From assembly GCA_026395055.1 (NCBI GenBank), contig JAPLZK010000001.1, positions 17,527 through 81,526 of the forward strand: a stretch of 64,000 bases of DNA. The letters are read 5' to 3'. Below are positions 12,971 to 58,580 of this stretch, piece by piece; positions within the stretch are counted from its first letter, which is position 1, and the number at the start of each line of letters is the position of its first letter. This stretch comes from Candidatus Uhrbacteria bacterium (lineage in GTDB: Bacteria; Patescibacteriota; Patescibacteriia; UBA9934; GWF2-40-263). The translations under genes and the position numbers were made by a program. The notes below the pieces were generated by a model that saw only the letters and a program-made list of their open reading frames with translations, made no database searches and was not told the origin of the DNA.

Positions 12971-13005
12971 AAAACCTCGCCGTTATACGGCGGGGTTTTC
13001 TCTTA
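12969..13005. terminator. bidirectional terminator
   Basis: CCTCGCCG-TTATA-CGGCGGGG hairpin flanked by A-run and T-run. Confidence 0.55.
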
Positions 13006-13963
13006 CAACTTCTTTTGAAATGACAGGTGGTTTTTTTATCGGGAATGGTTCACGCCACAATTCATATTGATCATTGAAGGTTTCACGCAGAAGATGATAC
13101 GGATTATTTTGTTTACGTTCGATTGTTTTCTCCTCAGGGAGAACAATTTTTTCATCGCGGATATACTGAGAAACCCACTCATAGCTTTTTGCAAGAATAT
13201 CGAGCGTGCTTTGTTGTTTGAATCGAGCGGCTAATTTCATTTGTGACTCGAGCTGAGTGGAGATCTCATACAAAAGAAGTGCGCGCACGGGATGTTTCTC
13301 GAGTGTACGTTGTTTTCCTTGAACCCATGTGCGCGCAAGGTCTGTCAGGCGTAATGGATCCAAGACCAAAAGAATTTTTGGGACTCTGTGCAATGCACCA
13401 AGAGGTTTTCCATCTGGAGATTGATCGTATTTTATTTTTCCAAGATTTCCAGAACGAACATCTCGTGCAATATACGAAAGTTTATCCAACAAAATATCTT
13501 TGCTTGACGTCGTTGTAAAATCAACAAGAAGCGGTGGTGGTTGTGTCCCCTCACCTTCTGGGAATTTAATGATCATGTCCACCCCCTGAAAGACATCATC
13601 AAAATCAGAGGTGTGTTGGGTGACCACCCCTTCCCCAAACCACTGATTCAAATCAATTTGTTCTGTAAGGATGGCCTCAAGTACGTTTCCACGACGCTGC
13701 CCTGCTTCCGATACGGGATCTTTTTTAAAAGTAAACTTGCGCTTACGATCTTCTACGTCGCGGAGATCACGCGCAACATCCGCCTTCCCATACACAGACG
13801 TAAATGGACCCATCTGTATTTGATCTACCTCAGTTCGAAGCGCTTTTGCATAAGATACATCTAAGACAACCTGATCATTCTCAAGTGCAATTTCCTGAAC
13901 AACCTTTTGTTTTTCCACTTCTTTTGGCGTTCGAAAAAAGGGTTCTGAGCGTGGTCGATCCAT
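12983..13963 (-). CDS. hypothetical protein, paralog of 13973-15556
   Basis: 326 aa; shares conserved blocks with its neighbour (LEAIxxEQIxLNxWxG, GxDxxxxF, HPVR). Confidence 0.6.
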   Translation of the reverse strand: MDRPRSEPFFRTPKEVEKQKVVQEIALENDQVVLDVSYAKALRTEVDQIQMGPFTSVYGKADVARDLRDVEDRKRKFTFKKDPVSEAGQRRGNVLEAILTEQIDLNQWFGEGVVTQHTSDFDDVFQGVDMIIKFPEGEGTQPPPLLVDFTTTSSKDILLDKLSYIARDVRSGNLGKIKYDQSPDGKPLGALHRVPKILLVLDPLRLTDLARTWVQGKQRTLEKHPVRALLLYEISTQLESQMKLAARFKQQSTLDILAKSYEWVSQYIRDEKIVLPEEKTIERKQNNPYHLLRETFNDQYELWREPFPIKKPPVISKEVVRENPAV

Positions 13964-13972
13964 AAAGCATAA

Positions 13973-15556
13973 TTACGCGGCAAGTTTTTGATTCGCCTTC
14001 TTTTCCAGAGCGACTCGTTGTTCTAAAGCTGCTTTTGCCTTATTCAACTCTCGTAATCGTTCAAATTCTTTTGCGAGAAATTTTATTTCTGGATCAACAG
14101 ATATGTCCCCCTGTTTTCTTTGTCGAATAAGAGATTCATATCTGGCCACCAATTCTTTTTTTGTTGGCACACCATTCGGAAACTCAGTTTGTTTCACAAT
14201 AGGCGCGACTTCTGGTTGCTGTTCCGGTTTTTGCTTCAATAATTCTTTTCCGAATCCCAATGCTCCTCTAAAAAATCTCAGTTCGCCTGCGATAGAAATA
14301 TCTCCAAGTGCCAACCGTTGTACAAGAATGTCATAACGCTCTTGTTGCTTCTCGATTGATAAACGGACCAAACGTTCTTTTGGCCAGATCCCCTTATGCT
14401 CTCCCAATCCTTTAAAAAATTCTGCGCGTGTCTGCTTTTTTTTAGACACTTCCGGTGTTACCACTTCTGTCACGACGCCGACTCCTTTGTTTTCTATTGT
14501 CTGAGCCTTGTCCTGAGAAGATTTCGTATGTTCTTTTTGAACAAGCAGCTTCTGCAGTTTATTTTCTAAATCGAATGTTGGAAGTGCTGCTTTCTTTTTC
14601 TTCGCGATTTTTAATTTTAATTCTAGTTCTTCCATGCGTTCTACATTTTCGGGATCAAAGACATTCTTCACGGAATTTTTAATTGTCTCTGCACCTTGAT
14701 CAACATAGCTTATCTTTGATGGCGAAACGCGTGACGCTGTACGTTGCATGGCCCCGTACTGAGCAGATAAAACTTCAACGAGCTTTGCAGCTTTTGGATT
14801 TCCACTTGCCTCAAGCGCGTGTGCATACGCAAGCTGACCCGCGAGCTGATCTACAATTTCCTTCATAATGGTTTGCCTGACTGGATGTTCTGCAAGAGCT
14901 GTTTGATTTCCTTGTACCCAAAGACGTGCAATATCAACAACATGTTGTTTTTCAAGAGCGAGAACAATTTTAGGAATAAATCGCTTTCGACCCTGAATAC
15001 TTTGATCTACCGTTTGAAAATACGTCATTTCTCCCAATTCCCCCCTATTGAGTTGCGAACGGATCTTTTCCAGTTTCAAACGAATAACCTGCCCTTTTCC
15101 GTGCGTGGCATCAATCGCAAACCCCATGTGTCTTAAGGCTCCATCCTCATTAAACTCTGTCACGAAATCAATGCCATTCGCATAGTCATCGTATTCACAG
15201 GTTTGTTGTGTATTGATGTTCGGCCCGAGCCATTCGTTCAATTCTATTTGTTCAATCACAATGGCTTCCAGGATCTTTCCCAATTGACGCATTTCTCCCA
15301 TTTCCGGATTCGCTGATCCGTGATCAAAAATACCACGAAGGCGCTCAACCTCTTTTGCCTGTGCTCTTAATTGTTTTTTTCCATAAACCCCCTCAAAATC
15401 CTCAACCTGAATCTGATCCGTCTCTGTCTCCAACGCTTTTTGATACGCAGCTTCAAGAACCACTCGATCACTCTCAAGTTCTTTTCCCTCTTTTCCTTTT
15501 TCCCTTGCAGCTTCCTTCGCCGCTTGAAAATGAGCCTCCTGACGAAATCGTTCCAT
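13973..15556 (-). CDS. hypothetical protein, paralog of 12983-13963 with K/E-rich coiled-coil C-terminal extension
   Basis: 527 aa; N-terminal ~270 aa homologous to the neighbour. Confidence 0.6.
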   Translation of the reverse strand: MERFRQEAHFQAAKEAAREKGKEGKELESDRVVLEAAYQKALETETDQIQVEDFEGVYGKKQLRAQAKEVERLRGIFDHGSANPEMGEMRQLGKILEAIVIEQIELNEWLGPNINTQQTCEYDDYANGIDFVTEFNEDGALRHMGFAIDATHGKGQVIRLKLEKIRSQLNRGELGEMTYFQTVDQSIQGRKRFIPKIVLALEKQHVVDIARLWVQGNQTALAEHPVRQTIMKEIVDQLAGQLAYAHALEASGNPKAAKLVEVLSAQYGAMQRTASRVSPSKISYVDQGAETIKNSVKNVFDPENVERMEELELKLKIAKKKKAALPTFDLENKLQKLLVQKEHTKSSQDKAQTIENKGVGVVTEVVTPEVSKKKQTRAEFFKGLGEHKGIWPKERLVRLSIEKQQERYDILVQRLALGDISIAGELRFFRGALGFGKELLKQKPEQQPEVAPIVKQTEFPNGVPTKKELVARYESLIRQRKQGDISVDPEIKFLAKEFERLRELNKAKAALEQRVALEKKANQKLAA

Positions 15557-38666: not shown

Positions 38667-40061
38667 ATGACAATTTTTATGATCACACGGAGAAATTTTA
38701 CAAAACTCATTGCGGCTCTTTCCCTTCTTTCCCTTTTGGGTGCAGGGTGTGGTGGGCCATCTGATGCACAGATTGCTGCGTCAAAACCCGTTAAACTTGT
38801 TGTTTGGCGTGTGTTTGATACACAAGACACCTTACAACCCATCATGACCGCGTATCAAAAAATTCACCCAAACGTTTCGTTTGAGTATCGTGAATTACGA
38901 TCCGATGAATTTAAAAACGAACTCTTGCGCGCACTTGCAGAAGGAAACGGTCCAGACATTTTCTCTCTCAACAATGCGTGGATTGGAGAATATCAATCCC
39001 TCATCACCCCGCTTCCCGCTTCCCTCAAAATTCCCTACTCAGAAGTTCGTGGAACCATCAAAAAAGAAACGGTTTATACCGTAAAAGAACAACCAAGCAT
39101 TTCTCTTCGTTCATTGAAAACAGATTTCGTAGACGTTGTAACCTCTGATGTTCTTCGTCCCTTTCAAGAAAATGCAAAGGCTCCTGTCTTAGATCGTATT
39201 TTCGGACTTCCTCTTGCCGTAGACAACCTCGCACTTTACTACAATAAAGATTTATTGAATGCCGCAGGATTCCCAGAACCCCCAAAAACATGGACAGATT
39301 TTCAAGCGCAAGCAACCAAACTCACCCACATTGGTGCAAACAATGAAATTTCACAGTCCGGTGCAGCGCTTGGAACAAGTAAAAATGTAGAGCGCGCATC
39401 AGATATTCTTTCTCTCCTCATGATGCAAAACGGAACGCAAATGACAGACGAACGCGGCGTTGCCATCTTTGCCGTTCCTGACACAAGCAGAAAAATCATG
39501 GCCTTAGACGCGTTAAACTTCTACACAGATTTTGCCAACCCAACAAAACAGGTTTACAGCTGGAATAAAACACAACCAAATTCCTTTGATGCATTCACTT
39601 CCGGAAAAACAGCGTTCTTCTTTGGCTATTCGTACCATGCACCACTCATTCGTGCAGCGGCTCCCAAACTCCCGTTCGCAATTGCAAGTATTCCACAAAT
39701 TGAAGGGGGGAAAAATGTGAACTATGCGAACTACTGGGTTGAAACAGTTTCAAAAGCTTCAACAAATCAAGATTTCGCTTGGGACTTTATCCAATTTGAA
39801 ACAAGTGCAGAGCAAGTCCCACAATACTTAAAGATTGCGCGCAAACCAACCGCACGTCGCGCACTTATCAATTCACAAATGCAAGACGAAGATCTTTCCA
39901 TCTTTGCTTCACAACTCCTCACGGCAAAAAGTTGGTATAAAGGGAAAAATGCCACGGTTGCAGAAAGTGCAATGCTTGATCTCATTGATTCTGCTCTTGC
40001 CGGAGACGACCAACAACAATCCATCCAAGCAGCACAAAACAAGGTAAATCAGACGCTGTAG
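38667..40061 (+). CDS. ABC-transporter-type extracellular solute-binding lipoprotein (SBP family 1), orphan
   Basis: Lipobox LLGAGCGG; SBP_bac_1-like fold length; no permease or ATPase genes adjacent. Confidence 0.65.
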   Translation: MTIFMITRRNFTKLIAALSLLSLLGAGCGGPSDAQIAASKPVKLVVWRVFDTQDTLQPIMTAYQKIHPNVSFEYRELRSDEFKNELLRALAEGNGPDIFSLNNAWIGEYQSLITPLPASLKIPYSEVRGTIKKETVYTVKEQPSISLRSLKTDFVDVVTSDVLRPFQENAKAPVLDRIFGLPLAVDNLALYYNKDLLNAAGFPEPPKTWTDFQAQATKLTHIGANNEISQSGAALGTSKNVERASDILSLLMMQNGTQMTDERGVAIFAVPDTSRKIMALDALNFYTDFANPTKQVYSWNKTQPNSFDAFTSGKTAFFFGYSYHAPLIRAAAPKLPFAIASIPQIEGGKNVNYANYWVETVSKASTNQDFAWDFIQFETSAEQVPQYLKIARKPTARRALINSQMQDEDLSIFASQLLTAKSWYKGKNATVAESAMLDLIDSALAGDDQQQSIQAAQNKVNQTL

Positions 40062-40065
40062 AATT

Positions 40066-40629
40066 ATGAAAAAACTTGCCTACATCTTTCTCACCCTTGT
40101 TCTTCTTATCGCTCCGTCGATAAGCAGAGCAGCGTATGTGAGCGATAATTGTCCGGGTGACCCACTTTCCCTAACCGTACGTTGCCCAAAAGAAAGCGTG
40201 GGTTGGTTTATGCAAGGGATTACAAACGCCTGCGGAAATGCTGGCAACTGCACACTGGGAGACATGATGATCGTCACCGCAAACGTTGGAAACTTTGTTC
40301 TCAAAATTATTGCCGCGATCGTTTTGTTCATGTATGTCCTTGGTGGATTCTGGTATCTTATTTCCCACGGAGATCCAAAACTTGTTGATAAAGGGAAAAC
40401 GGCCTTACGCGTTTCAACCATAGGCTTACTGATCGTCATGTTTGCCTACCTTGGTGTTAAAACACTTTACGCCGCCTTAACAGGAACGACCGTTGATACA
40501 ACAACCGTCGTATGTGACGGAACAAATGATGGAAAACAGTGTGGAAAAATTAGTACATGTCAGCAAGGAGCTTGTTACATTGATGCAGGAACAACCGCAG
40601 ATGCCATAAAAAACTTTTTCAACAAATGA
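40066..40629 (+). CDS. Sec-secreted small protein with C-terminal double-TM hairpin (VirB2/TrbC-like topology), paralog 1
   Basis: Signal peptide, Cys-rich N-terminal region, conserved GGFxY(L/M)xxGGDxxKVxKxK block between two hydrophobic helices, Cys-rich tail. Confidence 0.6.
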   Translation: MKKLAYIFLTLVLLIAPSISRAAYVSDNCPGDPLSLTVRCPKESVGWFMQGITNACGNAGNCTLGDMMIVTANVGNFVLKIIAAIVLFMYVLGGFWYLISHGDPKLVDKGKTALRVSTIGLLIVMFAYLGVKTLYAALTGTTVDTTTVVCDGTNDGKQCGKISTCQQGACYIDAGTTADAIKNFFNK

Positions 40630-40630
40630 T

Positions 40631-40972
40631 ATGTCTTCTCAGCGCCTTAAGTATTTCTTTCTGAGCATTTGTCTGCTTCTCTTACCACAACTTGCTTCTG
40701 CCGAACTCATCAATCCTCTCGGTTCCGGAATCACCATTGAAAGTTTTATCGGTCGCCTCATTAAATTTCTCCTAGGACTTTCTGGATCGGTCGCGCTTCT
40801 CATGTTTGTCTGGGGAGGATTTCAATATCTATGGTCCGGAGGGGATCCAAAGAAGGTTGAAAAAGGAAAAGAGACGCTCAAGAATGCCGTCCTTGGAATC
40901 GTGATCATCTTTTTCGCCTACACGCTTGTAAATTCGCTCATCAAAGTTCTCTCAAGTGGAGCATTGACATAG
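40631..40972 (+). CDS. VirB2/TrbC-like small secreted membrane protein, paralog 2
   Basis: Same architecture and conserved motif (WGGFQYLWSGGDPKKVEKGK); 1-nt intergenic gap to paralog 1. Confidence 0.6.
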   Translation: MSSQRLKYFFLSICLLLLPQLASAELINPLGSGITIESFIGRLIKFLLGLSGSVALLMFVWGGFQYLWSGGDPKKVEKGKETLKNAVLGIVIIFFAYTLVNSLIKVLSSGALT

Positions 40973-41009
40973 GCATGTGGATATCTTTCCATATCAAAAA
41001 TTCCAAAAA

Positions 41010-41045
41010 AACGATAAAATATCTTTATCGTTTTTTCATATTCAA
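41010..41045 (+). terminator. terminator after paralog 2
   Basis: AAACGATAAA-ATATCT-TTATCGTTTTTT. Confidence 0.55.
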
Positions 41046-41097
41046 TTTTTTAACTCTGTCCGTTCGGGTTAGGCTTGCCTTTCCCCTACCAATCTTT

Positions 41098-41538
41098 ATG
41101 AACACGCTTTCAAAGAAACACCTTGGTTACGTTCTTGGTGCCGCCGTCGCCCTTTCACTCATGCTTCCAGCCGTTCTTGGACTTGCACATCCTGCACAAG
41201 CTGCAGCGTTAACTCAAGACCAGCTATTTGGCGGAACAGCAGGAAGCGATGCAACCTTTGCAGACACAGCAGGTCTCAGCACCGGAGGTTCAGGCGGACT
41301 TGTTGGAACCATCGGAGCCATCATTAAAACAGCCATGGGATTCCTGGGAATTATCGCGGTTATCATCATTCTTCTCGGAGGATTTAAATGGATGACTTCT
41401 GGTGGAAACGACGAAAAGGTTAAGAAAGCAAAACAACTCATCTTCCAAGGAATTATCGGACTTGTCATCGTCCTTTCTGCATACGCCATCGCAACATTCG
41501 TTATCTCAAACATCGTTACCGCAACAAGCGCAGGGTAA
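41098..41538 (+). CDS. VirB2/TrbC-like small secreted membrane protein, paralog 3
   Basis: Signal peptide ending AHPAQA, Ala/Gly/Thr-rich region, motif LGGFKWMTSGGNDEKVKKAK; start at MNTLSKK. Confidence 0.6.
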   Translation: MNTLSKKHLGYVLGAAVALSLMLPAVLGLAHPAQAAALTQDQLFGGTAGSDATFADTAGLSTGGSGGLVGTIGAIIKTAMGFLGIIAVIIILLGGFKWMTSGGNDEKVKKAKQLIFQGIIGLVIVLSAYAIATFVISNIVTATSAG

Positions 41539-41544
41539 TCAAAA

Positions 41545-41582
41545 AAAACAAACTCCCCATTGCCTTCAATGGGGATTTGCAT
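41545..41582 (+). terminator. terminator after paralog 3
   Basis: TCCCCATTG-CCTT-CAATGGGGA. Confidence 0.5.
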
Positions 41583-41617
41583 GAGGTGATTTCTAAAAAT
41601 CCTCTCATGTGAATCTT

Positions 41618-41898
41618 ATGAAGCGACTCGCGATTTATTTTCTGGTTTCAATCAGTCACTCAGTCTTCCTGCATTAATCGGTCGAGGACTTGCTGTTCTC
41701 CTCGGTTTAATCGGAATCATCTTTGTTGTCTATATCATCTGGGCTGGTATCATGTATATGACCGCAGCGGGAGACGATACGAAGGTAAAAAAAGCAAAGG
41801 CAATGATTACGCAATCCGTAATCGGAATCATCATTATGGTTGGTGCTTATGCCATCTCAAACTTCGTCATCACACAACTAACAAACGCCGTAAAATAA
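41618..41898 (+). pseudogene. frameshifted/truncated copy of the pilin-like gene (paralog 4)
   Basis: ATG ORF gives only MKRLAIYFLVSISHSVFLH before a stop. The +2 frame continues ...LPALIGRGLAVLLGLIGIIFVVYIIWAGIMYMTAAGDDTKVKKAKAMITQS..., ~70% identical to paralog 5. Confidence 0.6.
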
Positions 41899-41923
41899 AA
41901 TTTTAAAAAAACTATCTATCTAT

Positions 41924-42328
41924 ATGTTAAAAGCAAGTTACCTCAAGTTCGGAGCAATGGTCGGATCCCTTCCCGTTTTGTTCTTACCAGCAGCTGTTTT
42001 TGCAGCACCTCCAGCAGGCACAGGACTTAGCGCAGCAAAAACATCTCTTGATACCGTAAAAACAGAAGCGGGTGTTACGGCAGGCGCAGCAGATTTGCCA
42101 ACACTTATTGGACGTATCATTGCTGTATTGCTCGGTGTCATGGGAATCATCTTGGTTGTCTACGTTATCATGGCAGGTATTACTTATATGACAGCAGGTG
42201 GTGATGACACAAAGGTAAAGAAAGCAAAAGCAATGATTCAAACTTCTGTGGTCGGTATCATCATCATCGTCGCAGCTTACGCCATCTCTTCATTCGTCAT
42301 TGCTCAAATCACAACAGCAACAGGTTAA
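41924..42328 (+). CDS. VirB2/TrbC-like small secreted membrane protein, paralog 5
   Basis: Signal peptide, Ala/Gly/Thr-rich linker, motif YMTAGGDDTKVKKAKAM, second hydrophobic helix. Confidence 0.6.
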   Translation: MLKASYLKFGAMVGSLPVLFLPAAVFAAPPAGTGLSAAKTSLDTVKTEAGVTAGAADLPTLIGRIIAVLLGVMGIILVVYVIMAGITYMTAGGDDTKVKKAKAMIQTSVVGIIIIVAAYAISSFVIAQITTATG

Positions 42329-42331
42329 TCG

Positions 42332-42370
42332 CAAGCGCAAAACAGAACGCATTATCGCGTTCTGTTTTTT
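42332..42370 (+). terminator. terminator after paralog 5
   Basis: CAGAACGC-ATTAT-CGCGTTCTG followed by TTTTTTT. Confidence 0.6.
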
Positions 42371-42441
42371 TATTCCAATGAAAAAGCCCCGACACCCATC
42401 CAGCGATTTGCTGATTGGATGCCGAGGCGAGAGTGACGATG

Positions 42442-43332
42442 TCAGTACGTGGTGTCACCGGTGCGTGCGCTGATTTGCGGACGACCGGATTGATCATGAC
42501 TGACCGAGTTTTCGTGGAATAAGAGACGTTTTGGATTTCCCCAGACCGTTTCGACACGCGAGATTCCAGGTGCAACCATGACCGCAACAGTCTTGATTGG
42601 GACCAAGAATATGAGTTCGATCGTGTCACCGGGCTGATAACCTACGTAGATGCTGTCAGGGCCGCTTGGATCGAACCCTCGTACCGGCATCTCATCTTCC
42701 TTTCTGTCGCCATCCAGATCCACGTAGAAATCCATGAATCGAACACCGGAGGGTGGCGGACCTTTGTAGGCAACCGCGAGTGTTTGGCCGTTTTTCTTCA
42801 CGACCACTCGCTGCAGACCAGATCGACCGAACCATTTTACCGCACCTTGATTGATTGAGTAGACTTCCACGCGAAATGGAGATCCACCAAACATATCCCA
42901 AGTTGCGGCCGCATTACTGCCGGGAGGATCAATGGTTTGAAACGGTGCGCCACCCATCCAGAACGGAGGCATTTCCTCCTGAGGCGAGGTGGAAGTTGCT
43001 TGGGCTGGAGGAGGAACATGCTTTGGAGCAGATTCGAGGGCCTGAGCCGTCTTCGACACGCGTTCGAGAGCCGCTTCGACCTTGTCGCTCCGCAGACTCT
43101 CCACTTGCGCTTTGAGCTGCAGAACCTTGAGGTCGACGTCTTTCTTGCAGTCCGCCGCAGAAAGCGCAATCGAGATTTTCAGGCTCGTCGGCGCCGTGTA
43201 CGGATCGTACTTCTTGTCGCACGCAGCCTTGTCAGCCGCGATCTGCGCCTCCGTCGGGATCACCACCGCTTGCGCAAGGGCAATCGAAGAAGACGAGAGG
43301 AACAGAACCAAAACGATGATGGACTTGAACAT
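42442..43332 (-). CDS. secreted hypothetical protein in the GC-rich island
   Basis: 296 aa; Sec signal peptide (LSSSSIALAQA); GC-rich codon usage unlike the flanks. Confidence 0.5.
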   Translation of the reverse strand: MFKSIIVLVLFLSSSSIALAQAVVIPTEAQIAADKAACDKKYDPYTAPTSLKISIALSAADCKKDVDLKVLQLKAQVESLRSDKVEAALERVSKTAQALESAPKHVPPPAQATSTSPQEEMPPFWMGGAPFQTIDPPGSNAAATWDMFGGSPFRVEVYSINQGAVKWFGRSGLQRVVVKKNGQTLAVAYKGPPPSGVRFMDFYVDLDGDRKEDEMPVRGFDPSGPDSIYVGYQPGDTIELIFLVPIKTVAVMVAPGISRVETVWGNPKRLLFHENSVSHDQSGRPQISARTGDTTY

Positions 43333-43435: not shown

Positions 43436-44005
43436 CTACTTTTTCTTCAACACATCACGAACGATGATCACCTGATCTCGCTCGATGCGATCCAGACGCT
43501 GTTCGATCGCACTATCACCCGAACCACCACCTTTTGGTTGACTCGTTTGATAGTATTGACCTTGGCTGAGCAGCGGAAGTCCAGGCGCGTAGCCCATACT
43601 TGCCGCTTCAGCTGCCATCATGGCCGGAGAAGATCCGTTCATGTTGGCGCCGTACATTCCGCCCATGCCGAACATCGTCCACCCAGCCTGCACGTCAGAC
43701 CGAGAGGCATCCTGACCGAGCGTCACGGGCATCTTTTTTTCGATTGCCCGCAGTGCCACCTCGCCCGTTTGCAGGGTTTGGAGGCGACGATTCTGCTCTG
43801 CCAAGATCTGGGAGGCGCCACTCGCCGTGCCAGAATAGGTGGCTTCCGTTTGCAGGGTTTGGAGGCGACGATTCTGCTCTGCCAAGATCTGGGAGGCGCC
43901 ACTCGCCGTGCCAGAATAGGTGGCTTCCAATTGCCCGTCTTTTCCGGGCTTGAGTGTTGCGCAGCCTGCGCAGAGCACCAGAAACAGTGCCAGCAGCTTT
44001 TGCAT
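43436..44005 (-). CDS. lipoprotein with perfect 27-aa tandem repeat
   Basis: Lipobox LVLCAGC; EATYSGTASGASQILAEQNRRLQTLQT repeated twice (81-nt perfect DNA tandem duplication at 43767-43928); Gly/Met-rich middle. Confidence 0.55.
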   Translation of the reverse strand: MQKLLALFLVLCAGCATLKPGKDGQLEATYSGTASGASQILAEQNRRLQTLQTEATYSGTASGASQILAEQNRRLQTLQTGEVALRAIEKKMPVTLGQDASRSDVQAGWTMFGMGGMYGANMNGSSPAMMAAEAASMGYAPGLPLLSQGQYYQTSQPKGGGSGDSAIEQRLDRIERDQVIIVRDVLKKK

Positions 44006-55779: not shown

Positions 55780-56916
55780 TTATTGTTTGATTGGCATCAC
55801 AATATAACGATGCTCATTTGGTTTGTCTTTTGTTGTCAGCAAACAGGGATTTGAGGCATCAATCATCTGAAAGAGAACTTGTTCTCCGTACATAGATTGT
55901 AAACCATCAAGGAGATAACGAAAGTTTACCGTTACCGTATTATTCACTCCTGTAATTTCCGCATCACATGTCGTTGTGTTTTCTCCACGCGTGACATCAA
56001 CTGCCTGGACACTTACACGTTTGTCTGTTGGAGAAAAAAGGAGGGTTACATCGAACAACCCATTCTTTGAAAACAAACTTGCGGTCTTTACCGCTTTCAA
56101 AAAATCCTCACGATCAATTACGGCTTGTGTTTGAAATTGTTTTGGAATGATCTGTTCGTAGTCTGGATATTTTTCTTCAATTGTTCGCGACACAAGTTCA
56201 ACGGGGCCATACATAAAGACAACCTGGTTCTGTTTCACTTGCATGGTGATGTAGGAAGGTAAGTCCACCTCGTCTCGAAACACAGATAAAACACGACTTA
56301 CTTCAGAAAGCGTCTTTGCAGGAATAACCACACGGAAATCTTGCGCAGGACCACTTGTAACCGGAATCGTCTTTTCAGATAGTCGGTATGAGTCTGTTGT
56401 TGCAAGTGTGAGTCTCATCTCCTGCTGGAAGGGGTAGAAATGCATCAGGACACCCGTAAGCTCTGGACGCGACTCATTCGTTGCAACAGAGAAGAGAACC
56501 TGTGAGAGAGCTGATTTCAAATCATCGATCGGAATCTGAAAACTCATATCCCCTTCAACCTTTGGAACAAGAGGAAAATCTGAAGCATTCATTCCGTGTA
56601 TTTTTGTTTTGTGCCCTCCACATTCCACCAAAACGTGATCCCCATTTGTTTCCAAGTGAATCACTTCATTTGGAAGAAGTGAAACGTAGTCAAAAAATAA
56701 TTTTGAAGGGATCGTAAATTCTCCTTGTTCATCAATCTTTCCTCGAACAGAACAATTGATGGCAATTTCAAGATTGGTGGCGGTAAATCGTACGACTCCC
56801 CCGTCTGCTTTTACAAGAACGTTTTGGAGGATTGGAAGATTTACGTTTTTTGTCACTAAGTGACTCGTGATGCTGAGTCCTTGGTGGAGGTTTTCTTGCG
56901 TGCAGGAAATCTTCAT
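55780..56916 (-). CDS. dnaN: DNA polymerase III beta sliding clamp
   Basis: 378 aa, three-domain clamp; lies downstream of dnaA. Confidence 0.9.
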   Translation of the reverse strand: MKISCTQENLHQGLSITSHLVTKNVNLPILQNVLVKADGGVVRFTATNLEIAINCSVRGKIDEQGEFTIPSKLFFDYVSLLPNEVIHLETNGDHVLVECGGHKTKIHGMNASDFPLVPKVEGDMSFQIPIDDLKSALSQVLFSVATNESRPELTGVLMHFYPFQQEMRLTLATTDSYRLSEKTIPVTSGPAQDFRVVIPAKTLSEVSRVLSVFRDEVDLPSYITMQVKQNQVVFMYGPVELVSRTIEEKYPDYEQIIPKQFQTQAVIDREDFLKAVKTASLFSKNGLFDVTLLFSPTDKRVSVQAVDVTRGENTTTCDAEITGVNNTVTVNFRYLLDGLQSMYGEQVLFQMIDASNPCLLTTKDKPNEHRYIVMPIKQ

Positions 56917-56934
56917 AGGTTTTAGTTTTTTGAT

Positions 56935-57167
56935 TTGAAAAAGGGAACTAAAGATAATGATAAGGCTGTGGATGACAGGGATAACTTTTTCTTTTTAGCT
57001 CCTCTTAGCAAAATTCTTTTCCGAATGCCTGTGGAAGACTTCTGTGGAAAGGTGTGTACGAGTGTGTGGATAGAAATTTCATCCAAAACAACGTTCTTTC
57101 ATCCACGGGTTTTGCACAGTGTTATCCAGTGGGTTGTCGATATCTTATACACAAGGATAACTGGTGA
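56935..57167. promoter_or_regulatory. dnaA-dnaN intergenic region with DnaA-box-like motifs
   Basis: TGTGGATAG, TTATCCAGT, TTATACACA and AAGGATAAC within 100 bp. Confidence 0.45.
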
Positions 57168-58580
57168 CTAAGATGTGTATAAGCGCTGTTTGATGAGTTC
57201 AAGGTCGTGCTGAAGCTTTTCATCAGCGGTTAAGCATTCAGAAATTTTCTCGTAGGCGTGCATGGCGGTTGTGTGATCTCGGCCACCAAGTTCGTTTCCG
57301 ATAGATGGATAACTGGATTTCATTTCTTCCCGCATGAGATACATGATGATTTGACGAGGAAATGCGAGTTTTTTCTCACGACTTTTTCCAAGCAAGTCTT
57401 CGATACGAATATCAAAGTAGATTGATACGGTATGAATGAGTTGCTTTGGTGTTACGTTCTTCTTGAGTGAAGAAGGTTGAAAGCTGGTGAGAATTGGTTT
57501 AACCGTGTCGAGTGTTGGTCGAATGTTTTTGAATTGATGGAAAGCGATCACTTTATTGAGAGCACCTTCAAGTTCTCGCACGTTCGTCTGTACGACGGAT
57601 GCAATGTGATTCAGGATGTCGTGTTCAATTTGATAAACCTTTTCGCGACATTTTGATTCAAGAATAGCCACGCGCGTTTCAAAATCTGGGGATCCAACAT
57701 CCGCCATCATTCCTTGTTCGAGACGAGAGGATAGTCGTGCCTCAAGTGATGGAATGGCTTTTGGTGGGCGATCCGATGAGAATACGAGCTGTTTGTTGTT
57801 TTGAAAGAGTTGGTTGAATGTGTGGAAGAATTCTTCTTGTGTGCTCTCTTTTCCGCCAAGAAATTGAATGTCATCAATGAGAAGTGTATCCACCATTCGA
57901 TATCTGTTCTTAAAATCATTCATTTTTCCGGTACGAAGCGCTGAAACGTAATCATTTGTGAAACGTTCACACGTAATATAAAGAATGCGAAGGTTTGGGT
58001 TCTTTCGTAAGAGCTCATTTCCAATCGCTTGAAGCAAATGGGTTTTTCCAAGCCCAACTCCTCCGTAGATATAAAGAGGATTGTAAACGCCCCCCGGTTG
58101 ATTTGAGACCGCTTGAGCGGCGGCGTGAGCAAGTTCGTTTTGTTTTCCAACAATGAAGGTTTCAAAACAATATTTTCCATTTAAAGAAAACTCTCCTGTT
58201 CGATTTTCTTGAACGTCCGATGGTTGTTCGGTAAAAAAATCTTTTGGGGATTGTACGGGTTGTTCTGGAGCATGATAAACAGGTTGTGGTTCTGGTTTTC
58301 CTGCAACAGGAACCATTTGCGCCGGGATCTGACGTGTTTCAACACGGAATGTAATGTGTTTAATGTTTCCTCCTGTGTGCTCTTGCACAGACTTAATGAT
58401 TTCTTTCGCATGTTTTTTTTCAAGCCATGTCAATGTAAACATGTTTGGAACACCAACGGTAAGAGAGTGTTCTGAAATCTCTGAAATGAACGTGCTTTTA
58501 AACCACGTCGTGAAATTTGCTTTGCTAAGGGACAACTCGAGTTCCCCAAGAACAGCTTGCCAGAGTTCGATCGTGTTCAT
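57168..58580 (-). CDS. dnaA: chromosomal replication initiator DnaA
   Basis: AAA+ Walker A GGVGLGKTHLL; C-terminal DnaA-box-binding HTH (GGRDHTTAMHA). Confidence 0.95.
   Translation of the reverse strand: MNTIELWQAVLGELELSLSKANFTTWFKSTFISEISEHSLTVGVPNMFTLTWLEKKHAKEIIKSVQEHTGGNIKHITFRVETRQIPAQMVPVAGKPEPQPVYHAPEQPVQSPKDFFTEQPSDVQENRTGEFSLNGKYCFETFIVGKQNELAHAAAQAVSNQPGGVYNPLYIYGGVGLGKTHLLQAIGNELLRKNPNLRILYITCERFTNDYVSALRTGKMNDFKNRYRMVDTLLIDDIQFLGGKESTQEEFFHTFNQLFQNNKQLVFSSDRPPKAIPSLEARLSSRLEQGMMADVGSPDFETRVAILESKCREKVYQIEHDILNHIASVVQTNVRELEGALNKVIAFHQFKNIRPTLDTVKPILTSFQPSSLKKNVTPKQLIHTVSIYFDIRIEDLLGKSREKKLAFPRQIIMYLMREEMKSSYPSIGNELGGRDHTTAMHAYEKISECLTADEKLQHDLELIKQRLYTS

Follow-up and report, generated by a model that had tools for sequence, protein, structure and literature searches.

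A tandem array of five putative VirB2-like pilin genes headed by a solute-binding lipoprotein gene in a Candidatus Uhrbacteria genome

Introduction

In the Patescibacteria, genes for small VirB2-like proteins occur in tandem arrays. Such an array was first noted in 2018 in TM7x, as a set of small proteins with Sec signal peptides related to VirB2. In Southlakia epibionticum, the six-gene array SEML1_0014-0019 is essential and lies beside genes for VirB4, PrgI and VirB6-like proteins. Quinonero-Coronel et al. (2025, PMC12102498), who searched 3,035 Patescibacteria genomes with the same Pfam models as those used here, counted 441 arrays in 383 assemblies, with 2-11 VirB2-like genes per array; the mutual identity of the array genes was 25% on average and 54% at most, and genes of a type IV secretion system (T4SS) were often found near dnaA. 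A 2025 review describes the Patescibacteria systems as unique among monoderms for potential pili, and the function of the T4SS-related system is stated in the literature to be unknown. Here, we report the analysis of an array of this kind, with genes c1 to c5 in order, located at 40066-42328 on the plus strand of a 64-kb stretch of DNA (the window) from a metagenome-assembled genome (MAG) of Candidatus Uhrbacteria (Patescibacteria, GTDB class ABY1), where its location is chromosomal.

Because VirB2-like arrays of the Patescibacteria have already been published, this one is a further example, in Uhrbacteria (ABY1), of a known class of locus and changes little in that respect. Its five genes fall within the published range of 2-11. 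The mean identity between the paralogues is 31% (over the longer protein), and the closest pair, c4-c5, with 57% (63% over aligned residues), slightly exceeds the published maximum of 54%. The array shares with those of S. epibionticum ML1 (SEML1_0014-0019) and Nanosynbacter lyticus TM7x ('Sec secreted array') the same Pfam family, the succession of signal peptide, variable segment and hairpin, the tandem arrangement of four to six strongly divergent paralogues, a chromosomal position near the replication origin and a monoderm, host-dependent phylum. The S. epibionticum array is embedded in a T4SS cluster, where a VirB6-like gene diverges from it and VirB4 and PrgI are close by, and no solute-binding gene heads it. 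In contrast, a solute-binding lipoprotein gene comes first in the window array, and the nearest 40 kb on the upstream side and 22 kb on the downstream side contain no T4SS gene.

We propose that the locus is an operon-like block in which a solute-binding lipoprotein gene precedes genes for five specialised VirB2-like pilins, which would form a filament or conduit assembled by a T4SS encoded elsewhere. Our analysis gives this reading a probability of roughly 0.6.

Results and Discussion

Five paralogous genes for putative secreted hairpin proteins

The array is made of five consecutive genes on the plus strand, as the initial annotation of this DNA had described it; the open reading frames (ORFs) agree with its coordinates, c3 being 146 residues long. 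Each gene codes for a protein in which a variable segment separates the signal peptide from a two-helix hairpin, the loop of which is basic.

40066-40629, plus strand: c1, pilin-like protein of 187 residues, with an N-terminal segment and a 47-residue C-terminal extension that are both Cys-rich; intact
40631-40972, plus strand: c2, pilin of 113 residues, the most conserved copy, starting 1 nt past the c1 stop; intact
41098-41538, plus strand: c3, pilin of 146 residues, with a variable segment rich in Ala, Gly and Thr; intact
41618-41898, plus strand: c4, deletion allele of a gene for a pilin of 129 residues
41924-42328, plus strand: c5, pilin of 134 residues, with c4 as its closest paralogue; intact

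Eight Cys residues were counted in c1. In c3, the signal peptide starts at MNTLSKK (41098), though the mechanical ORF opens at 40975. Two K/R residues are present among the first 8 residues of each of the five proteins, and the hydropathy profile displays three hydrophobic segments per copy, corresponding to the signal peptide and two transmembrane helices. Cleavage sites of the small-x-small type were predicted by rule at SRA↓A, ASA↓E, AQA↓A, ALA↓A and VFA↓A for c1 to c5, respectively, so that the Sec signal peptides first proposed are supported in each copy by a hydrophobic signal segment and a predicted site. The two long hydrophobic helices are separated by a loop of the form G-G-D/N-x-x-K-V-x-K-x-K, in which G63, G71, V76, K78 and K80 (c2 numbering) are invariant in alignment A2, in agreement with the common C-terminal helix-loop-helix core that had been described. 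In the AlphaFold2 model of c5, the helices span residues 58-89 and 95-133 with a 5-residue loop between them, and the core has a predicted local distance difference test score (pLDDT) of about 90.

When the five proteins were tested for the type IV prepilin class III leader (G↓F/M-T-L-I-E, N-methylation motif), none of them matched, and a PF07963 search gave zero matches among the array proteins. The lack of a type IV prepilin motif, which had been noted from the sequence, is borne out by both checks.

Assignment to the T4SS_pilin family

Three profiles bear on the classification of these proteins, namely PF18895 (T4SS_pilin; gathering threshold, 26.6 bits), PF04956 (TrbC/VirB2; gathering threshold, 27.9 bits) and NF045849 ('pilin-like conjugal transfer protein'; cut-off, 40 bits). 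With PF18895, c2 (59.1 bits), c3 (36.6 bits) and c5 (29.9 bits) score above the threshold and c1 (22.5 bits) falls just under it, the E-values across the copies being 4.7e-16 to 1.2e-4. The family hidden Markov model (HMM) built in this analysis recognizes c1 with an E-value of 1.8e-27, and its E-values for the array copies are in the range of 1e-23 to 1e-50. Precomputed PF18895 matches also exist for the position-1 orthologues of c1 in relatives and for the intact form of c4 that is found in sibling assemblies. PF04956 is passed by c2 (42.4 bits); c3 scores 13.9 bits, and c1 and c5 have no match. NF045849 is passed by c3 (40.9 bits), and c2, c4 and c5 are under its cut-off. The NCBI pipeline, whose window proteins on the 159,118-bp MAG contig include NTX72_00330 and NTX72_00335, names c2 'pilin'. 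In addition, a profile of the five paralogues collected 894 relatives, the best-named of which belong to Candidatus Uhrbacteria. Judged by these sequence profiles, the array proteins are members of the Patescibacteria T4SS_pilin family PF18895, and their initial designation as VirB2/TrbC-like proteins, not type IV pilins, is retained.

Like the VirB2/TrbC/TraA pilins of diderms (PF04956), the array proteins combine a Sec signal peptide, two hydrophobic helices and a short basic loop. Unlike in those systems, only c2 reaches the PF04956 threshold, the organism is a monoderm, five paralogues are present instead of one major pilin, and no VirB5, VirB7, VirB9, VirB10, cyclisation or acetylation system is encoded in the 64-kb window. 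A second likeness is to the Mbov_0395 family (NF045849) of Mycoplasma integrative and conjugative elements, which are also two-helix pilin-like proteins of a wall-less or monoderm lineage and to which the c3 score refers. The Mbov_0395 proteins differ in being about 80 residues long, in having neither a long signal peptide nor a variable segment, and in occurring as a single copy in mobile elements with VirB4.

A solute-binding lipoprotein gene at the head of the array

The c1 gene starts 4 nt after the stop of the gene that precedes it, the first of the operon:

38667-40061, plus strand: gene for a family-1 (sugar-type) extracellular solute-binding lipoprotein (SBP_bac_1, 104.8 bits)

The nearest solved relatives of its product are maltose/trehalose-binding proteins, with only about 55 bits. 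Its signal peptide (38667-38760), MTIFMITRRNFTKLIAALSLLSLLGAGC, contains a TRRxFxK motif resembling those of the Tat (twin-arginine translocation) pathway and a lipobox-like LGAGC.

To see how far this association extends, 51 metagenome and 79 genome loci, picked by pilin similarity, were scored with HMMs built in this analysis. An array was taken as evaluable when it was non-identical to the others, contained at least three small pilins and had visible upstream DNA (n = 70); the sample is biased to relatives of the window's pilins. In 58 of these 70 arrays, the solute-binding gene ends a median of 5 nt before the first pilin gene. The other 12 have no such gene at their head, three of them being second sub-arrays of loci that do have one. 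Beyond the solute-binding gene the neighbours vary (galU, gyrA or ychF), and the coupling to the array is not mere synteny, because the genes farther upstream differ. The reverse test gave the same picture: all three homologues chosen on similarity of the solute-binding protein alone precede 4-6 pilin genes. The block is carried by Uhrbacteria, Jacksonbacteria, Komeilibacteria, Magasanikbacteria and Kerfeldbacteria (ABY1), by Sungiibacteriota and by a Saccharimonadia MAG. Thus, the solute-binding gene is tightly coupled to the pilin array and is part of the same unit. A full-text search of the searchable literature found no published report of this association.

If the coupling is functional, the conserved unit would be an operon whose first gene encodes a divergent sugar-type solute-binding lipoprotein, with the VirB2-like proteins and the binding protein acting together at the cell surface; we put this forward tentatively and regard it as doubtful at present. 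Were it true, the binding protein may recognise host-cell glycans for a pilus or an anchor. Alternatively, it may receive host-derived solutes through a T4SS-related structure, which would make import, not export, the role of the Patescibacteria T4SS. In lineages seemingly without VirB4, the pair might even function without any secretion ATPase. A nearly universal head gene offers a concrete handle on the function of a system that the literature calls completely unknown.

Relation to a type IV secretion system

A direct physical link to secretion genes is found in the Saccharimonadia-type loci L126 (6895-16900), L094, L104, L025 and L114, in which the block is followed immediately by two extended VirB6/TrbL-like genes of about 850 codons (PF04610, 31 bits). 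In the L126 lineage, the block comprises the solute-binding gene and four pilin genes. This arrangement ties the solute-binding gene and the pilin block physically to T4SS membrane components. Furthermore, the published Table S1 (PMC12102498) lists as VirB4-positive five named ABY1 genomes that have such arrays, among them Uhrbacteria CG_4_9_14_3_um_filter_50_9 with its orthologous five-gene array.

If the proteins are assembled by a T4SS, the following sequence of events would be expected. By analogy with VirB2/TraA pilins, Sec would insert the precursor, and signal peptidase I would cleave it behind the small-x-small site. The mature protein would then form a membrane hairpin, with the basic GGDxxKVKKAK loop on the cytoplasmic side and both termini, the N-terminal one being variable, outside. 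Subunits would be drawn from this membrane pool and assembled by a T4SS of the monoderm type (VirB4, VirB6, VirB3/PrgI) whose genes lie in another part of the genome. The result may be a surface filament or conduit for host-cell contact, as proposed for the Saccharibacteria, in which the equivalent array is essential.

Several observations weigh against this proposal. The 64-kb window encodes no VirB4, VirB6, VirD4 or any other T4SS component, and no T4SS ATPase or VirB6 gene occurs within 7-10 kb of the examined arrays headed by a solute-binding gene, save for the VirB6-like genes of L126-type loci. Among the related loci scanned, those genes were confined to the L126 type, and a VirD4-like (type IV coupling protein) ATPase was present only in L109; a Pfam scan of 30 large neighbour ORFs of related arrays returned GyrA, LeuRS, PNPase, RecG, FtsH, an AddA-like protein, DUF2079 or no annotation. 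In the nearest sequenced species, three assemblies that all carry the orthologous array (RIFCSPHIGHO2_02_FULL_47_44, RIFCSPLOWO2_12_FULL_47_9 and RIFCSPLOWO2_01_FULL_47_17) are listed as 'VirB4: No', and that part of the table has the same entry for 18 of its 36 Uhrbacteria. A pilus has never been seen for any member of the PF18895 family. Structural comparison gave no corroboration either. Fold searches with the hairpin model returned generic helical hairpins only and are uninformative, and when the paralogue profile was run against the sequences of solved structures, no solved pilin was detected and the only matches were spurious loop-motif hits to designed 'Pizza' propellers. The kinship with VirB2 rests on sequence profiles, because fold searches cannot discriminate so simple a fold.

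These points leave room for an explanation independent of any T4SS, in which the hairpin proteins would work with the solute-binding lipoprotein, either as a platform that docks or displays it or as a system for the capture of host sugars or glycans. The head position of the solute-binding gene (58 of 70 arrays, at a median of 5 nt, across differing upstream contexts) fits such a role, and the binding protein (60-85% identity, top 120 clusters) is more conserved than the pilins. No ATP-binding cassette (ABC) permease or ATPase partner gene accompanies it in the window or in annotated relatives. The VirB4-negative entries of the sister species in three assemblies point in the same direction, and related loci in which the hairpin module is fused to the N-terminus of extracellular proteins of 600-3400 residues make an anchor role possible. 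However, the family is homologous to TrbC/VirB2, the block directly adjoins VirB6-like genes in the Saccharimonadia-type loci, and VirB4 is present in all five of the other named array-bearing genomes. The incompleteness of MAGs could account for the 'No' entries, and gene adjacency is coupling, which says nothing of mechanism. On this evidence we consider the T4SS-independent explanation unlikely, though still a serious alternative, and favour pilins assembled by a T4SS encoded elsewhere.

Orthology of the paralogues and selection

The window array was compared with the arrays of nine other species, the nearest of which are L064 and L063. In both, c1-c5 correspond one-to-one to array positions 1-5. 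In more distant species, c4 matches position 5 best in six of seven cases; because of this, and because the c4 and c5 cores are 73% identical, c4 and c5 appear by sequence to be the youngest pair.

Against L064, the nonsynonymous divergence (dN) is 0.06-0.15 in the cores and 0.09-0.37 in the variable segments, for a synonymous divergence (dS) of about 1-2, which is saturated. In every segment of all five copies, dN is far under dS. The core of c2 is 88% identical to its L064 orthologue. Between species, the Cys-rich N-terminal segment of c1 is likewise 88% identical, and its C-terminal extension is poorly conserved (21%). In c3-c5, evolution of the exposed N-terminal segments is about 2-4 times faster than that of the cores. 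The c2-type orthologues measure 112-191 residues, some with Cys-rich inserts, and the lengths of their N- and C-terminal segments are very variable. These comparisons indicate that all copies are old and under purifying selection, the exposed segments being less constrained and prone to insertions and deletions. Owing to positional orthology and purifying selection, specialised subunits appear to fit better than an antigenic-variation repertoire.

The latter had been the view of the initial annotation, which saw in the array a diversifying repertoire for antigenic or adhesive variation of a surface filament, with the broken copy as part of its turnover. The faster evolution of the exposed segments of c3-c5, the great differences in length of the terminal segments among orthologues and the coexistence of a c4 deletion allele with an intact allele would all suit this view, and the possibility has been raised in the literature by analogy with Bartonella and Anaplasma (PMC12102498). 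In those bacteria, several tandem VirB2 paralogues also differ chiefly in their exposed segments; the copies there are recent, variable and tied to immune evasion in animal hosts, whereas the window copies appear to be ancient positional orthologues under purifying selection. Against a diversifying repertoire speak the same-position one-to-one orthologue that every copy has in other species, dN/dS values well below 1 in all segments (with dS saturated, brief episodes of positive selection may have escaped notice) and the conservation of the Cys-rich segment of c1. Moreover, the array is devoid of repeats or recombination signals, c4 and c5 alone being moderately similar. We thus judge the variation repertoire to be very improbable. 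Five conserved and non-interchangeable subunits of a T4SS-assembled structure would more likely hold distinct structural roles (major, minor, tip, adaptor) than represent variants, and such ancient specialised paralogues would bear on the architecture of the pilus proposed for Patescibacteria.

The lesion in c4

In the window, the ATG at 41618 opens the frame MKRLAIYFLVSISHSVFLH, which meets a stop after 19 codons. The conserved core of c4 (…SLPALIGRGLAVLLG…TAAGDDTKVKKAK…NAVK, then stop) continues in another frame up to 41898, where the first canonical start is at 41752, and the NCBI annotation retains only a remnant of 73 residues (NTX72_00330).

Exact-sequence look-up of c5 and c2 identified two sibling assemblies, Logan L001 (SRR20698643) and L002 (SRR20698644). 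Over the 5,579 bp upstream of the lesion their identity to the window is 100%, and on its downstream side 99.85-100%. Both have 109 additional bases, which fall between window positions 41640 and 41641. In these assemblies, c4 is an intact ORF of 129 residues (P0001) with the N-terminus MKRLAIYFSVLVQILFLSSLPALA↓APAAD…. In the window, the loss of 109 bp takes away the greater part of the signal peptide and variable segment and puts the remainder out of frame. A programmed frameshift or a single-base error is ruled out by the 109-bp difference from the intact allele, and no slippery heptamer was seen. Of the causes first suggested for the broken copy, a deletion or an assembly error therefore stands and a single-base frameshift does not.

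The lesion may be genuine, as a deletion allele carried in the population, or it may be an error of assembly. In the latter case, c4 would be no pseudogene in the organism, and the gap would have arisen in the assembly of the MAG. The gene is intact in the assemblies of two independent read sets, which otherwise match the window at 99.8-100% identity, and position 4 is intact in all arrays of related species, sister species included. Against an error, the deletion junction shows a microhomology of merely 1-2 bp, with no flanking repeat able to mislead an assembler, and it is just as possible that the population contains a deletion allele, be it in the minority or the majority. We estimate the chance of an assembly error at slightly short of even.

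Transcription units

Hairpins that may delimit transcripts were found at three places in the array:

41006-41042, plus strand: terminator-like site after c2, an AT-rich hairpin with a 13-bp stem followed by T6
41554-41613, plus strand: two adjacent hairpins after c3 (-28.2 kcal/mol, z -6.1)
42339-42375, plus strand: intrinsic terminator after c5 that closes the array, with a 12-bp stem followed by T7 (-17.4 kcal/mol, z -4.2)

The first of these, which was absent from the initial annotation, lies in a region (40973-41060) that folds with -18.1 kcal/mol (z -5.4). A terminator of its own had been assigned to each of c3, c4 and c5. This is accurate for c5, where the structure is clean. The c3 hairpins have no clear U-tract downstream on the plus strand, and the consensus scan calls the first of them a terminator on the minus strand only. 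Between c4 and c5 no terminator is present, the 25-nt spacer being unstructured (0 kcal/mol). Taken together, the close packing of the genes and the positions of the hairpins suggest that transcription proceeds in three units, one with the upstream gene, c1 and c2, one with c3 by itself, and one with c4 and c5.

Neighbouring genes and further observations

The rest of the window is ordinary chromosome, with dnaA, dnaN, ruvB, genes for a class A penicillin-binding protein (PBP1) and NifS/NifU, galU, and genes for an Nramp transporter and a P-type ATPase. The dnaN and dnaA genes lie at 55780-58580 on the minus strand, some 14-16 kb from the array, which fits the published tendency of T4SS-related genes to be near the origin. 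Convergent to the array, three genes follow on the minus strand:

42442-43332, minus strand: gene for a secreted protein of 296 residues, with no function assigned
43436-44005, minus strand: gene for a lipoprotein of 189 residues, with orthologues of 157-196 residues
44757-47225, minus strand: gene for a polytopic membrane protein of 822 residues, with no Pfam annotation

These three genes have a G+C content of 0.49-0.54, against about 0.44, and in related Uhrbacteria they are found in synteny with the array; the latter observation led us to reject a foreign origin of the GC-rich 42-47 kb segment. No T4SS signal was found in them. The 822-residue protein was considered as an extended VirB6/TrbL and rejected: jackhmmer made no connection to VirB6-like proteins, hhalign against the L126-type VirB6-like proteins gave a probability of 10.9%, and a PF04610 match is absent from the window protein and from all 51 family members scanned. 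This family has merely 62 representatives among 1.84 billion proteins, and the AlphaFold2 model of the protein (pLDDT 48) is too poor for use. In the lipoprotein gene, 81 bp are perfectly duplicated in tandem at 43765-43928 (2.0 copies, 100% match), so that a 27-residue repeat, EATYSGTASGASQILAEQNRRLQTLQT, occurs twice.

Elsewhere in the window, two adjacent paralogous genes on the minus strand, at 12983-13963 (326 residues) and 13973-15556 (527 residues), code for proteins with similar N-terminal portions of about 230 residues, neither having a Pfam match.

Among the comparison loci, 13 (L027, L030, L095, L097, L102, L103, L106, L112, L118, L121, L124, L131 and L137) contain a pair of giant ORFs of about 600-650 and about 2800-3480 residues, for example at 9866-20318 of L103. 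The first part of each such ORF (within residues ~10-240) is an entire pilin module, with signal peptide, variable segment and hairpin, and a huge extracellular extension comes after it. The hairpin thus has a second use as the N-terminal anchor of surface proteins, and the 47-residue C-terminal extension of c1 resembles a small version of these extensions. Finally, many MAG records with such loci (L063, L065, L067 and others) are titled 'uncultured Gammaproteobacteria bacterium', apparently a default or wrong label.

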